Sequence record: MG983840.1
Reading direction: 5' to 3' (one strand)
Origin: Escherichia phage myPSH1131
Length of the DNA: 64,000 nt
The notes under the pieces are model-generated. The model did no database searches, was not told where the DNA came from, and saw only the letters and a list, made by a program, of their open reading frames with translations. Position 1 is the stretch's first letter. Each line of letters starts with the position of its first letter. The translations under genes were made by a program, and so were the position numbers. Shown here in pieces: positions 51,314 through 64,000 of the stretch.

Positions 51314-51688
51314 CTACCAGTCTTGTTCTTCGTCGATATGATAAATCCAAGCGATAACAGTTTCACCTGAGTCCATCTTAACAGCAATCTGAGTACGCTG
51401 ATAGAAGCTGTCTTCAGGGCTACGTTTGTTGTAACCTTCCAGACGGTCATACGGACCTTCCAGACCTGCTTTGTCAGTAGCAAACACTTCTACACGAACA
51501 GGCTTGTTGTTATTGCTGTGTGCGAGAGAGATGCTCGGGAAGTAGGAACCACCGTAACGGAACAGATCAAAGTTGTCTTCAGTCCAACCTTCACCAATTG
51601 ACTTAGCACCAGCTCGGTCATTAACTAAATAGTTAGCTTGACCACGACGAAGAGAACCATAAGTTGCTACGTAAATTACTTCTGACAT
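51314..51688 (-). CDS. gamma-glutamyl cyclotransferase-like (GGCT/AIG2 fold) protein
   Basis: N-terminal VIYVATYGSLRRGQAN fits the GGCT/AIG2 signature. Confidence 0.5.
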   Translation of the reverse strand: MSEVIYVATYGSLRRGQANYLVNDRAGAKSIGEGWTEDNFDLFRYGGSYFPSISLAHSNNNKPVRVEVFATDKAGLEGPYDRLEGYNKRSPEDSFYQRTQIAVKMDSGETVIAWIYHIDEEQDW

Positions 51689-51716
51689 TATCTATACCTT
51701 TGTTGGTTTGTTTAGT

Positions 51717-51941
51717 TTATCCGACGTTAGCATTTAAGCGAAGTTCCTGAATCTTAGTGTCAATTGAGGGCCATAAGGAAGAACACGCACCATTGTTAGA
51801 TACCTTTAAGTTTAAGAATTTCGTTAGAACGCGATCTCCAATACGAACATCAATGCTGGAGGAATTAACAGCTGAGTGTGGTGCATCAATAACACCATCA
51901 TCAATTAATTTATGTAACTCTGGACTTCCTAGTAAACTCAT
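51717..51941 (-). pseudogene. dCTP deaminase N-terminal fragment (second copy)
   Basis: 74 aa matching the first ~40 aa of 46792..47325, then divergent. Confidence 0.45.
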
Positions 51942-51950
51942 TCTTATTCC

Positions 51951-53264
51951 TTAGTTATTTGTTTCCATGTCAAAAGAGATTCCACGACCCGCTTCATCGG
52001 CAAACCGAACTGTACGGGTTTGAGGTTCTAATACTTCAGGGTTGTTAGCAATAAAGCGATCAGCGAGACTATCTCCCAAATCTTGTTCCATACCTTCATC
52101 AGTCCAGATAACACGAGAAGGGGCGTTGATATCACCAACAGCGAAACCCTGACCAGAGAACTGACGTGCGCTAACAGTTAAGCCGTTTGGTCGACCACGA
52201 GAGGGTCTAGCCATCCATCGCTCCATAGAATCACTTGTAATACCAAGAGCTTCTTCAAAAGATGTTCTACGAGTAGGGCTTTCTCTTCGTGACTCTTGTG
52301 CTCGACGCATTGCAGGGGCTACAAACACCCCTTCAATTGCATTGTGTCGGTTAGGTTCCTCTTCTCGACCAAGCAGATCACCACCCGTGTTAGTCGTTAA
52401 ATTTGTCAACCCCTCAGACCAATACGCATGAATCTGACCAGAACCGTGAAGACTAGACATAATCTGAATCTCTTCATAAGGGATTCCAAAGAATCGACTC
52501 ATGTCTCGGTTAACACAATATAGAGCACTTGTTGTATCTTCAATAAGAGAAACCTGACCTAATCCATTGACTAGATGACTAACTGGCTGAGGTGTGGGAA
52601 GATATCGAGTTTGGGCCATGTATTGATGCGCAACTGCTGGAGAGGAAAATCTCAACACTTGTGAGTTAGGCCACTTCTTGTGAACATACCTGATTTCACG
52701 ACTAGAGACAACCACTGGACAAGGGGAAGTCATAGCCAAATATCCGTGAGAAGTCATGAATAAGTTGTCAAGAGTCATCGCACCACGGCACATCATAGGA
52801 AAATTATCCAATACCTCTTCAATAGAAGTAGGATAATTAAACATGAATTGGATACGAACCCCATTCCACTGAAACTCAATAATATCAGTGAATGTTAATT
52901 GAGAACCCCCAGCATAGGATTCGTTTGTAGCTTCAGCAAGAAGTGATGCATATTCAATATCTTGTGACTCTAGCCATTCCTTCACATTACTTTCAATCTC
53001 CCGTCCAAGCTCTTGCCAACGATCAGTTGGGATGAAAGTGTTTTGAGTTCTTGGTGTTTGTCCTCTGACAATAAAGATATCAATGTCATGTGGAGCTATG
53101 TTATTAAGGACAGCATCACGAACAGCCCCACCAGTAATGATGGGACAGATACCATCTGGAATCAAGTTGTTGTTAATCAACTGTTCAATGAAGTGACGAC
53201 CAACAGTGATATCAGGTTGTTGAGCAACCTTATCTTCAATTTGGTTAATCGGGATAACAATCAT
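51951..53264 (-). CDS. nucleotidyltransferase, second copy
   Basis: About 90% aa identity to 47541..48914 with the same GGAVRD...DID motif. Confidence 0.5.
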   Translation of the reverse strand: MIVIPINQIEDKVAQQPDITVGRHFIEQLINNNLIPDGICPIITGGAVRDAVLNNIAPHDIDIFIVRGQTPRTQNTFIPTDRWQELGREIESNVKEWLESQDIEYASLLAEATNESYAGGSQLTFTDIIEFQWNGVRIQFMFNYPTSIEEVLDNFPMMCRGAMTLDNLFMTSHGYLAMTSPCPVVVSSREIRYVHKKWPNSQVLRFSSPAVAHQYMAQTRYLPTPQPVSHLVNGLGQVSLIEDTTSALYCVNRDMSRFFGIPYEEIQIMSSLHGSGQIHAYWSEGLTNLTTNTGGDLLGREEEPNRHNAIEGVFVAPAMRRAQESRRESPTRRTSFEEALGITSDSMERWMARPSRGRPNGLTVSARQFSGQGFAVGDINAPSRVIWTDEGMEQDLGDSLADRFIANNPEVLEPQTRTVRFADEAGRGISFDMETNN

Positions 53265-53265
53265 T

Positions 53266-53454
53266 TTACATTTTCCAATATAATGAAGGTGGGTCGTAAG
53301 GGTCAAATCCCGTGAGTTCAAAAAAGAAAAGATAAACCTTAACAGTTAAGTTAACGTCATGTTCACAATAAGTAAACATATCTTCCAAACACCAATAGGA
53401 GTCTCCTCCTCTCCTTTTAGGTGCCAGTAGCACTGATATGCGTTTTAGGTGCAT
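53266..53454 (-). pseudogene. exonuclease-domain fragment (second copy)
   Basis: Only the C-terminal ~40 aa of 48916..49410 ([13 protein letters not shown]...). Confidence 0.4.
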
Positions 53455-61905: not shown

Positions 61906-62519
61906 AACGAATCCACCAACGTAATATTATAATTGCTAAGGTTTTCAGAGATGTGATGAAAATGCTCCAGAAGTCGCATCGGTTGTTGACCATAAGAGTC
62001 ACGAGGTGCTTCCAGATCTACCTGACCTACCAGTGCACCTTTATAATGCACTTTACCATCTGTAGGATTGATGTAAATATAACGAGTAACCAATCCATCA
62101 AATTCAGGATTGAACAGACTGTAAACCATTTCACCAGAGATCGAACGACCAATTCCAGGAGCGTTTCGAATCTTGTTACCCATCAAACCCTTCGCTCTCT
62201 GACGAACAGGGTTGATATGAGTCCAGCTTACAGTGTTACCGTTATGGAACAGATAACCAACATCAGGTGATTCAAGAATCAAGGTTGGGTCGAACACTGG
62301 AATATTCATCGTAGTGTTTCGGAGATTCCCATGCTCGTTCTTGTACCACTGCTCTACAACAAAATACAGAGCCTGTTCTGCTTCATGCGAGAAGTCATCG
62401 CTGCGGAAGTTACCGCTCTGCTCAACACCAATCACAAAACACGGAAGGTTGATATTGCCTGCTCGTTTAGCAATCCATGTACCATTATAGTAATGAGAAA
62501 AATCAGCTACTAAGCTCAC
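61902..62519 (-). CDS. hypothetical protein P (205 aa), translationally coupled to the amidoligase
   Basis: GTG start with SD AAGAGG; its stop overlaps the amidoligase ATG. Confidence 0.35.
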   Translation of the reverse strand: MSLVADFSHYYNGTWIAKRAGNINLPCFVIGVEQSGNFRSDDFSHEAEQALYFVVEQWYKNEHGNLRNTTMNIPVFDPTLILESPDVGYLFHNGNTVSWTHINPVRQRAKGLMGNKIRNAPGIGRSISGEMVYSLFNPEFDGLVTRYIYINPTDGKVHYKGALVGQVDLEAPRDSYGQQPMRLLEHFHHISENLSNYNITLVDSL

Positions 62520-62528
62520 GATAACCTC

Positions 62529-62760
62529 TTATGCTACCTGAAGGAGTTTGATCTGCTGGTCAGCTTCTTTAACGTTGTTCCCGTTAATGATTTCATGAAG
62601 CTTCTCAATCGGAAGGCGAGAGTGCAATGCCATCAGATTGTACATATAAAACTGCTGAACAACCTTATAAACCAGATCGTAAACAAACTTACTGTTTTCA
62701 CTATCACTAATACAGAAGTTAGACAGCGAACGGTATTCGATACCATAGTCTTTATAAAGG
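62529..62760 (-). pseudogene. gene W, C-terminal ~75 aa only
   Basis: Open frame ending ...NGNNVKEADQQIKLLQVA, no start; truncated by the junction with the second amidoligase copy. Confidence 0.3.
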
Positions 62761-63285
62761 CGATACCACGTTGCTTAAACGTACGTTGTCCTCTTGGAGA
62801 CGTGTATGCCGAAGTCGTTGCGTCGATGAAAAATCAATATCGTTTTGCGTAAACATGCCTACCACTGCAAACGCAGGGCAGAAATTGCTACGGTAACGAT
62901 GGTAGCCTGAACACTTGAACAACATCTTTTCATAGAAGGTCCAAGCGAGAATGGTTTTCTTGAGGATATTACTATCAGCATCCCTCATATCCATATGAAC
63001 GTGAGTAGAGCAACGCCAAGTCCCCTCGGCGTGCGATTCAGCTACTGCTTCACTCAGGTTGTTGATAGCGTCTAACAACTCCTGTCCATTGTAAGGTCGT
63101 GAACATACCATTTCACAACCATTACGCAGGGAACCATCCTCTGTACAATCCCACATATCTGCTTCGATATGATCGGAACCTTCGAGTTCAAGTTCAATAC
63201 CGACGCCGCACTGAAGTGCAATTGAACTATGCGCCTCAGTTAAACGACCTTCTCGATATCCAAAAGTTTGCGCTACAGTTGTCAT
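62752..63285 (-). pseudogene. amidoligase copy 2 (C-terminally truncated)
   Basis: Identical to 61120..61905 for about 140 aa, then diverges after CPAFAVV. Confidence 0.4.
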
Positions 63286-63899
63286 AACGAATCCACCAAC
63301 GTAATATTATAATTGCTAAGGTTTTCAGAAATGTGATGAAAGTGTTCCAGAAGTCGCATCGGTTGCTGACCGTAAGAGTCACGAGGTGCTTCCAGACCTA
63401 CTTGCCCTACCAGTGCACCTTTATAATGCACCTTACCATCAGTAGGGTTGATGTAAATATAACGAGTAACCAATCCCTCGAATTCAGGATTGAACAGACT
63501 GTAAACCATCTCCCCGGAGATAGCACGACCAACACCCGGAGCATTTCGAATCTTGTTACCCATCAAACCCTTTGCTCTCTGACGAACAGGGTTAATATGA
63601 GTCCAGCTTACAGTGTTACCGTTATGGAACAGATAACCAACATCAGGTGATTCAAGAATCAAGGTTGGGTCGAACACTGGAATATTCATCGTAGTGTTTC
63701 GAAGGTGCCCTTGCTCATTCTTGTACCACTGCTCTACAACAAAATACAGAGCCTGCTCTGCTTCGTGAGAGAAGTCATCGCTGCGGAAGTTACCGCTCTG
63801 CTCAACACCAATCACAAAACATGGAAGGTTGATATTACCTGCTCGTTTAGCAATCCATGTACCATTATAGTAATGAGAAAAATCAGCTACTAAGCTCAC
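63282..63899 (-). CDS. hypothetical protein P, copy 2
   Basis: 205 aa, about 93% aa identity to 61902..62519. Confidence 0.35.
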   Translation of the reverse strand: MSLVADFSHYYNGTWIAKRAGNINLPCFVIGVEQSGNFRSDDFSHEAEQALYFVVEQWYKNEQGHLRNTTMNIPVFDPTLILESPDVGYLFHNGNTVSWTHINPVRQRAKGLMGNKIRNAPGVGRAISGEMVYSLFNPEFEGLVTRYIYINPTDGKVHYKGALVGQVGLEAPRDSYGQQPMRLLEHFHHISENLSNYNITLVDSL

Positions 63900-63908
63900 G
63901 ATAACCTC

Positions 63909-64000
63909 TTATGCTACCTGAAGGAGTTTGATCTGCTGGTCAGCTTCTTTAACGTTGTTCCCGTTAATGATTTCATGAAGCTTCTCAATCGGAAGGCGAG
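63909..64000 (-). CDS. gene W, 3' end (5' part lies beyond the window)
   Basis: Bases 63901-64000 are identical to 62521-62620. Confidence 0.3.
   Translation of the reverse strand, partial: RLPIEKLHEIINGNNVKEADQQIKLLQVA

Follow-up and report, generated by a model that had tools for sequence, protein, structure and literature searches.

A chimeric, partial copy of a conserved amidoligase gene module in Escherichia phage myPSH1131

What do bacteriophages make with a set of enzymes whose families form and break gamma-glutamyl amide bonds? The question is raised by positions 51314 to 64000 of a 64,000-nucleotide (nt) stretch of DNA from Escherichia phage myPSH1131 (sequence record MG983840.1), which was analyzed as a whole and is referred to here as the window. 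An earlier note, made from the sequence alone, had recognized four enzymes in this region (an amidoligase, an ATP-grasp ligase, a class II glutamine amidotransferase [GATase], and a GGCT/AIG2-like protein) and had read them as one minus-strand cluster. Our analysis identifies the region as part of an early-gene module which is conserved among podophages, both phiEco32-like and many others, and which is present here as a chimeric copy. The open reading frames (ORFs) are present and their families are correct, far beyond chance, and the cluster is a damaged, incomplete copy in which none of the four named enzyme genes is intact as written.

Mosaic structure of the window

Megablast of positions 51314-64000 matched 98 phage records, 66 of which covered at least 80% of the query, and among the matches listed, all were Kuravirus-type (phiEco32/SU10-like) phages of Escherichia or Shigella with 95 to 97% identity. 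The match to phage SU10 fell into 14 pieces, with 12.7 kb of the window set against 11.1 kb of the reference. When the entire window (1-64000) was mapped to the complete SU10 genome by blastn, approximately 48 same-strand blocks with 72 to 100% identity were obtained, and ectopic joins, deletions, and duplications were found throughout the map. The 64-kb window is a mosaic, all on one strand, of at least three strain alleles. At 3431, a join has removed the scaffold gene along with the beginning of the major capsid gene, and the sequence as written therefore represents no viable genome. SU10 positions 21998-24692 are present twice (one repeat is 23305-26384), and the nucleotidyltransferase gene is found in two copies (47541-48971 and 51951-53321). 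Within the cluster, a block comprising gp080, gp081, and the ATP-grasp gene occurs three times (53486-55173, 55280-56490, and 56592-58201) and a block comprising the amidoligase gene and gp087 twice (61146-62760 and 62860-64000).

The two gp087 copies differ by 34 nt changes, 30 of which fall on codon position 3, corresponding to 26 synonymous and 6 nonsynonymous codon differences. Because the differences are overwhelmingly synonymous and at third positions, the repeat copies represent diverged alleles of different strains joined in series. A tandem duplication of the ATP-grasp and amidoligase genes within one genome was ruled out, since the copies are 2 to 10% apart, almost solely at synonymous sites, and since the mosaic with its lethal deletions extends over the whole window. 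In our reading, the mosaic arose when a mixture of strains was assembled into a chimera, or by another non-native concatenation, and does not reflect biology; the window copy stands for no single real genome. The idea of one intact cluster was thus contradicted by a copy that is chimeric, duplicated, and frameshifted. Much of the content of the accessory ORFs, described earlier as co-linear, consists of repeated blocks. The ATP-grasp, class II GATase, and AIG2/GGCT genes of the window are adjacent and co-directional (all on the minus strand). The window itself contributes only a damaged copy of the module.

At three block joins, snippets of 34 to 43 nt from distant SU10 genes were observed (36454-36487, 55179-55221, and 56490-56528, derived from SU10 38378-38411, 58591-58632, and 59640-59677, respectively). 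Such snippets would not be expected from ordinary repeat-induced assembly errors.

Enzyme families and conservation of the module

The gene for the GGCT/AIG2-like gamma-glutamyl(amine) cyclotransferase (51314-51688, minus strand), an orthologue of SU10 gp078, encodes amino acids (aa) 1-123 of 139 with 100% identity to gp078; its 3′ end was lost by a small deletion. Pfam assigned the window ORF (1.9e-14) and intact gp078 (3.4e-17) to PF06094. gp078 displays the substrate-binding motif YGSL and, within 'DRLEGY', a Glu that is a candidate for the catalytic residue of the GGACT/AIG2 family. The [YF]-G-[ST]-[LNM] motif was found in all 36 GGCT homologues, and a loose acidic-Glu pattern was found in only 21 of the 36.

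The gene for the N-terminal nucleophile (Ntn) class II GATase-like enzyme (58639-60799, minus strand; orthologue of SU10 gp085) contains a tandem duplication of 76 nt (60392-60467 = 60468-60543), which divides its coding sequence between two frames, one with aa 1-110 and the other with aa 76-676. Its first codon (60797-60799) is ATT in the window versus ATG in SU10, and the nucleophile Cys is retained. The ORF at 58639-60558 matched PF13522 (GATase_6; 1.4e-11). SU10 gp085 begins with MCGIV, i.e., with Cys directly after the initiator Met; in a motif scan of the 73 virome loci described below, M-C-[GAS]-[IVLM] was present near the start in 47 of 60 GATase homologues and HNG in 56 of 60. Upon alignment of gp085 to the GlmS/PurF Ntn domain, the Arg of HSRHAT(.G) and the Asn-Gly of HNG matched GlmS motifs, and the Asp of EVDSE aligned to the GlmS ETDTE segment. 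In GlmS, the Arg and Asp residues bind the alpha-carboxylate and alpha-amino groups of glutamine, and Asn-Gly forms the oxyanion hole. For the C-terminal 440 aa of gp085, no Pfam family above threshold and no recognizable synthase domain (SIS, PRTase, or Asn-synthetase type) was found; judged from its sequence, this part appears to comprise a low-complexity linker, possibly a barrel-like region, and three CxxC...CxxC Zn-ribbons. The NCBIfam models for GlmS, PurF, and AsnB reached 21 to 43 bits versus cut-offs of 267 to 418, in the N-terminal domain only, and EgtC was among the weak matches, far below its family cut-off. Since no synthase partner domain is recognizable in gp085, ammonia release is only one of two options, the other being hydrolysis of gamma-glutamyl amides in the manner of EgtC. 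The class II assignment of the earlier note stands, and its liberation of ammonia is reduced to one option.

The Amidoligase_2 gene (60882-61905, minus strand; orthologue of SU10 gp086), which encodes a GCS/GS-like carboxylate-amine ligase, is frameshifted. In the ORF at 61120-61905 (261 aa), the match to gp086 extends over the first ~253 aa and then gives way to a short tail that is out of frame; aa 281-367 lie in another frame past an 80-nt deletion at 61145/61146. The match to PF12224 was above the gathering score (1.8e-8; 4.7e-8 for gp086), and [ST]-H-x-H was present in 73 of 73 amidoligases. A second GCS-like ligase, intact SU10 gp088, matched PF14395 ('Phage phiEco32-like COOH.NH2 ligase-type 2'; 2.4e-8). 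Only C-terminal fragments of gp088 lie in the window, its N-terminus and gp089-gp092 being located beyond the window end. The four enzymes had thus been recognized correctly, and this second ligase and two core proteins beyond the window end had been overlooked.

The ATP-grasp gene (57073-58233, minus strand; orthologue of SU10 gp082) covers aa 26-400 of a more divergent allele with 87% aa identity; in place of the first 25 aa there is foreign sequence, which includes a gp090-like peptide. The window ORF gave sub-threshold Pfam matches only (Dala_Dala_lig_C, 0.004; RimK, 0.009). SU10 gp082 matched a RimK-type alpha-L-glutamate ligase in the PDB (7qys; 1.3e-3) and PHROG 2599 (7e-190). NCBIfam matches of gp082 to MptN (the best), RimK, and Ddl were far under the cut-offs, TIGR00768 (rimK_fam) reaching 31.5 bits versus 143.4. 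By sequence comparison, gp082 appears nearest to RimK, S6-glutamate ligase, MptN, and Ddl, i.e., related to the RimK family and no member of it by cut-off. The proposed resemblance to glutathione synthetase was not borne out, as no glutathione-synthetase family was among the matches listed. The Mg/ATP-binding E-x-N motif of gp082 ('LEVN') aligns to RimK, and E-x-N was found in 67 of 71 ATP-grasp homologues. The C-terminal 82 aa of gp082 (aa 319-400; window 57073-57320), which follow an acidic linker, matched a separate PHROG (phrog_20552; 3e-58), which suggests a mobile accessory domain.

Key catalytic motifs are thus present in the SU10 proteins and in most homologues. The family calls of the earlier note rest on Pfam for three enzymes, and the sub-threshold ATP-grasp call is supported by the SU10 orthologue; profile searches placed none of the four in unrelated families. 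The RefSeq record of SU10 (NC_027395) names gp085 'L-glutamine-D-fructose-6-phosphate aminotransferase' and gp082 'ribosomal protein S6 glutaminyl transferase'. We regard both names as over-annotations because the NCBIfam scores are 20 to 43 bits versus cut-offs of 143 to 418 and because gp085 has no SIS domain. No match was obtained when ten proteins of the module and its neighborhood were compared with the known and candidate anti-phage defense systems of PADLOC-DB v2.

Where the window is colinear with the phiEco32/SU10 amidoligase neighborhood, the gene order is the same; nt identity to SU10 and ES17 is 96 to 97%. The two are one and the same module, of which the window holds a chimeric, duplicated, and frameshifted version that is cut off by the window end. 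A tblastn search with the amidoligase retrieved 301 phage records, most from phages of Pseudomonas (120) and Escherichia (92), followed by Aeromonas, Vibrio, Proteus, Salmonella, Porphyromonas, Cronobacter, and others. Synteny was observed in five curated lineages (SU10, Salmonella 7-11, Aeromonas LAh_6, Pseudomonas LUZ24, and Pseudoalteromonas RIO-1). Four of them share the order X', X, type-2 ligase, ~200-aa 'slot' protein, Amidoligase_2, GATase, small ORF, ATP-grasp, GGCT, and then primase/helicase; RIO-1 is the exception with a GATase-first arrangement. Among viromes, 73 distinct IMG/VR loci were analyzed with locally built iterated hidden Markov models and de novo clustering. The amidoligase was present in 73, the ATP-grasp ligase in 70, the type-2 ligase in 67, and the GATase in 64 of these loci, adjacent and co-directional throughout, and missing genes were mostly accounted for by contig ends. 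Primase/helicase genes followed downstream in 63 of 73 loci. The neighborhood is therefore conserved in phiEco32-like genomes and far beyond them, and the homologues stand in tight synteny instead of being scattered. Even the genome-reduced Kuravirus LAMP retains the entire module. In SU10, the module genes lie in the sigma70-driven early region, and gp78, gp82, gp85, and gp86 were detected by mass spectrometry in a polyethylene glycol-precipitated lysate (PMC4281155).

Beyond the four enzymes recognized earlier, the module comprises the PF14395 ligase, an SH3/Tudor-like protein (the slot protein), DUF7195, two paralogous proteins (X and X'), a Zn-ribbon, and Peptidase_C26. SU10 gp084 was assigned to DUF7195 (PF23825; 4.7e-17) and Peptidase_C26 to the gamma-glutamyl hydrolase/PuuD family (PF07722; 1.6e-21). 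The latter was found in 37 of 73 loci, alternating with GGCT (24 loci with C26 only, 23 with GGCT only, and 13 with both). This alternation suggests an interchangeable step of gamma-glutamyl removal, and it strengthens the gamma-glutamyl logic of the earlier note. In 50 of 64 loci, the GATase itself carries the Zn-ribbon, and in 31 loci the ribbon is on a stand-alone protein encoded after the ATP-grasp gene. Only 4 loci had neither form, several of these with truncated or frameshifted GATases. The stand-alone protein (55 to 80 aa, directly after ATP-grasp) has an acidic tail, with [VI]F[NT]D..EEEI in one subfamily. It is absent in Kuravirus, in which the ribbons are fused to the GATase. A profile of 20 of these Zn-ribbon/acidic-tail proteins found no LysW in the PDB, and their C-terminal residues are unconserved.

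The slot protein was present in 58 of 73 loci. In SU10 gp087, residues 104-115 (NPVRQRAKGLMGNKIR) form a loop that is predicted to be disordered (pLDDT of ~50); R106, K110, and G111 (R-x3-K-G) of this loop are invariant, including in the 7-11, LAh_6, and LUZ24 homologues. Judging from this pattern, the loop could be a modification or carrier site. For X and X', no solved structure matched significantly. The X family is marked by an invariant Cys along with Asn, Asp, Arg, Glu, Gln, and Tyr residues, and the fold of this family recurs in uncharacterized proteins, mostly from phages here shown to carry the module. For a structure model of the X family, the longest alignments, all weak, were to GshA, PafA, and Dop. 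Profiles gave no link between LUZ24-type X proteins and the gp089 family, the two sharing only a C[FY]G motif and low-probability Foldseek matches. Profile-profile comparison of the gp089 family with the two GCS-like ligases of the module yielded no match, but the ligase-versus-ligase positive control likewise failed. No Pfam match above threshold was obtained for the GATase C-termini, the ATP-grasp C-terminal domain, the N-termini of the RIO-1 ligase and of the 7-11 GGCT, gp083, gp090, or gp091.

The amidoligase gene neighborhood was reportedly described computationally by Iyer, Abhiman, Burroughs, and Aravind in 2009. The earlier note correctly rediscovered this known, still unsolved module from a defective copy. 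The module is already annotated in GenBank records and a Pfam family (PF14395) carries the phiEco32 name, in agreement with the earlier note, according to which computational descriptions exist and no product has been defined experimentally: in the literature through mid-2026, 17 years after the 2009 description, we found no experimental study of the module. The present survey contributes a fuller parts list, some of which may already be contained in Iyer et al. 2009. More than 300 sequenced phage genomes carry the module, among them those of many Pseudomonas and E. coli isolates of the type studied for phage therapy, and it is found in marine viromes as well; it is kept even in genome-reduced relatives and is expressed early.

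Possible chemistry and products of the module

We lean toward the view that the module encodes an early-expressed, ATP-driven pathway which makes amide bonds via gamma-glutamyl intermediates that are later trimmed, with the substrate probably in bound form. An amide bond would be formed by each of three ATP-dependent carboxylate-amine ligases (Amidoligase_2, the type-2 GCS-like ligase, and the RimK/Ddl-like ATP-grasp ligase). As to the order of steps, we infer that one GCS-like ligase would place a gamma-glutamyl amide on an amine-bearing substrate and that the remaining ligases would form more amide bonds, perhaps with an amidation that draws on the GATase. This enzyme would either supply ammonia or hydrolyze gamma-glutamyl amides as EgtC does. 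The gamma-glutamyl group would then be removed as 5-oxoproline by GGCT or as glutamate by C26. Glutamate may serve as a transient carrier or protecting group, comparable to the butirosin, ergothioneine, Puu, and Pup systems. The substrate would be held in a multiprotein complex and borne on a protein, carrier, or nucleic acid, rather than being a free metabolite; this is suggested because the Zn-ribbon, the SH3/Tudor-like adaptor, and the two phage-only proteins always travel with the enzymes.

Several known systems offer partial parallels. In the butirosin pathway (BtrJ/BtrG), a gamma-glutamyl group is added as a protecting group by an ATP-grasp enzyme and taken off by a GGCT-fold cyclotransferase. 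The phage module likewise combines an ATP-grasp with an AIG2/GGCT-fold enzyme, which would imply that a gamma-glutamyl amide is made and then removed; in contrast to butirosin, it has no acyl carrier protein, decarboxylase, or aminoglycoside genes and adds two GCS-like ligases and the Ntn GATase, and the comparison is made at the fold level. In ergothioneine synthesis (EgtA/EgtC) and the Puu pathway (PuuA/PuuD), a GCS/GS-like ligase is paired with a GATase-like gamma-glutamyl amidohydrolase. The module may mirror this pairing through a class II (EgtC-like) or a class I/C26 (PuuD-like) enzyme; however, the phage scores are far below the family cut-offs, the other pathway enzymes are absent, and the GATase carries Zn-ribbons. 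RimK and LysX join Glu or an amino acid to an acidic protein C-terminus, that of LysW in the case of LysX. The RimK-like ATP-grasp ligase and, in the 31 loci, the adjacent Zn-ribbon/acidic-tail protein are reminiscent of LysX beside LysW, but the phage proteins neither resemble LysW in sequence nor share a conserved C-terminal Glu, and the Kuravirus ribbons are on the GATase. PafA and Dop, both with the GS fold, form and cleave gamma-glutamyl-lysine isopeptide bonds, and the GS/GCS-fold ligases of the module and the weak alignments of the X-family model to GshA, PafA, and Dop would be compatible with such chemistry.

A number of points weigh against the pathway outlined above. The literature offered no product, substrate, or phenotype of the module, and the ATP-grasp ligase matches its families weakly. 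The GATase could be a plain ammonia-supplying glutaminase, in which case only GGCT and C26 would report on gamma-glutamyl intermediates, and neither of these was detected in 13 of 73 loci. The suggested bound substrate is read from accessory domains without an assigned role, and the stand-alone Zn-ribbon protein shows neither a conserved C-terminal Glu nor LysW similarity. Finally, the Btr, Egt, Puu, and Pup parallels are drawn as analogies.

Among the alternatives, hypermodification of DNA or deoxynucleoside triphosphates (dNTPs) was considered first. Gamma-glutamyl groups would be put on for protection and taken off again as an amino acid- or polyamine-derived amide is attached to a base, and the genome would thereby escape restriction; we consider this unlikely, and still more so its specific form as a new pathway in which X and X', with their invariant Cys, would activate the base for an amide-linked amino acid or polyamine group. 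Zn-ribbons and SH3/Tudor-like barrels are frequent nucleic acid binders, which would suit such a pathway, as would the X-family residues (an invariant Cys along with Asn, Asp, Arg, Glu, Gln, and Tyr) and the fact that replication genes directly follow the module in 63 of 73 loci. Matches to the amidoligase and amidotransferase Pfam families co-occur with thymidine-hypermodification genes in viromes (PMC8989533). Furthermore, Gordonclarkvirinae resist restriction-modification systems with no known cause (PMC11990801). SU10 retains 13 EcoRI, 38 EcoRV, 11 EcoKI, and 111 EcoP1I sites; these counts rule out site avoidance as the cause of resistance for these four enzymes, and site loss thus leaves the resistance unexplained. 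A DNA-modification pathway, if true, would solve this puzzle. Against it, Pfam analysis of nine nearby and other SU10 proteins, which covered part of the genome and was not aimed specifically at base-activating enzymes such as a hydroxymethylase, 5-HMUDK, or aGPT-Pplase, identified ThyX, dCTP deaminase, Macro, metallophosphatase, SLOG, ferritin-like, and PhoH families and a weakly scoring P-loop protein, and no family of a known hypermodification. ThyX and dCTP deaminase, which the earlier note had taken as a hint at nucleotides, are conventional enzymes of dTTP supply and add little. In addition, GCS and ATP-grasp ligases act on carboxylates, and a carboxylated base precursor is not evident; the literature yielded no account of modified DNA in Kuravirus or LUZ24; and the authors of the BASEL collection implicate the dCTP deaminase and the nucleotidyltransferase, not the amidoligase module.

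Site usage in SU10 was also compared with a first-order Markov expectation. Depleted sites were CCWGG (6 versus 101), BamHI (0 versus 12), PstI (0 versus 19), and GATC (163 versus 306), and enriched sites were EcoRV (38 versus 19) and CAGCAG (99 versus 40); EcoRI sites numbered 13 versus 28 and EcoKI sites 11 versus 7.

Covalent tagging of a host or phage protein with amino acids, for instance by RimK-like glutamylation or PafA-like formation of gamma-glutamyl-lysine, is likewise a doubtful explanation. GGCT, C26, and the GATase would edit or reverse the tag, and a host machine would be reprogrammed early in infection. The nearest relatives of the ATP-grasp ligase (RimK, S6-glutamate ligase, and MptN) point in this direction, as do the stand-alone, acidic-tailed Zn-ribbon protein that follows ATP-grasp in 31 loci, the early expression, and the invariant Lys in the gp087 loop that is predicted to be disordered. 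The protein ligase PafA has the GS/GCS fold, and gamma-glutamyl-epsilon-lysine is the known substrate of GGACT. Yet no target was identified, the acidic tails end in no conserved residue, and three different ligases seem excessive for one tag. GGACT-type enzymes also need a gamma-glutamyl group with a free alpha-amine, and free isodipeptides are what they are known to act on.

A free small molecule or envelope precursor (including cell-wall modification against superinfection and remodeling of polyglutamate tails of folate, of polyamines, or of glutathione-type thiols) is the least plausible product, and we regard it as improbable. An L-gamma-glutamyl group whose alpha-amine is free is required for the chemistry of GGCT, C26, and Ntn-GATase enzymes, and the peptidoglycan stem peptide has no such group. 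In addition, near-universal Zn-ribbon and SH3-like partners are unusual among small-molecule enzymes, and the module contains no transporter or envelope-targeting component. In its favor are the Ddl-like similarity of the ATP-grasp ligase and the activities of MptN (the best NCBIfam match) and Peptidase_C26, both of which act on glutamate tails of cofactors or on gamma-glutamyl amines; moreover, according to the Pfam description, bacterial Amidoligase_2 genes reportedly adjoin GATase-like peptidases or AIG2 proteins. Two later papers (PMC10580990 and PMC11318856) cite the module as a predicted cell-wall modification and superinfection exclusion system and credit the idea to Iyer et al. 2009.

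Identification of the product would reveal a new phage metabolite, a new modification of host proteins, or a new DNA modification. Some phages with the module now grow on E. coli K-12 (BASEL phages Bas86-93), which makes the question directly testable.

Remaining features of the window

All further features of the cluster lie on the minus strand. A second GGCT fragment (53445-53633) covers aa 1-49 and is joined to unrelated sequence, as seen by tblastn and in the block map. It is followed by an orthologue of the small conserved gp079 (53635-53844; 69 aa), which is 100% identical to SU10 gp079 and is kept in phage 7-11. The first repeat copy (53898-55174) contains gp080, gp081, and a partial ATP-grasp gene (aa 122-400) with 95.5% identity to SU10 52795-54482, and the second (55324-56489) contains the same genes with aa 156-400 of ATP-grasp and 96.9% identity to SU10 53163-54382. 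gp080 and gp081 of the third copy are found at 56636-57066. The small DUF7195 gene (gp084 orthologue; 58445-58636) was mapped by tblastn and covers aa 1-64 of 77. gp083 is missing beside it; in its place, a garbled stretch (58201-58445) lies between ATP-grasp and gp084, with short gp090-like peptides (YSRMVST.TN and GCGHFRD) in different frames, the matches being weak (E of 0.3 to 0.8).

The first gp087 copy (61902-62519; 205 aa, intact) encodes tandem SH3/Tudor/Sm-like barrels. It is followed by a C-terminal fragment of gp088 (62532-62756; aa 194-268, by tblastn) and by a second partial Amidoligase_2 copy from another allele (62752-63285; aa 1 to ~150; PF12224, 5.3e-8). The second gp087 copy (63282-63899; 205 aa) differs from the first almost solely at synonymous sites, and a second gp088 fragment (63912-64000; aa 240-268, by tblastn) runs off the window end.

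The two nucleotidyltransferase ORFs (476 and 456 aa) resemble CCA-adding enzymes and share 89 to 91% DNA identity over much of their length, with a 208-nt stretch that is 100% identical (47453-47660 = 51863-52070). A fragment of the beginning of the dCTP deaminase gene lies ahead of each copy. SU10 gp064 gave a strong Thy1 match (2e-43), and the window copy of this ThyX (45480-45959) does not have the first 58 aa. In this ThyX, K-H-Q may stand at the position of the canonical RHR motif.

In the neighborhoods of related modules, two recurrent clusters of proteins had no Pfam match, one of ~350 aa upstream of C26/GATase (11 loci) and one of ~227 aa after ATP-grasp (11 loci). Genes for a nicotinamide phosphoribosyltransferase and a ribose-phosphate pyrophosphokinase lie close to the module in 7-11 and LAh_6, and this pair may form an NAD-salvage or counter-defense unit.

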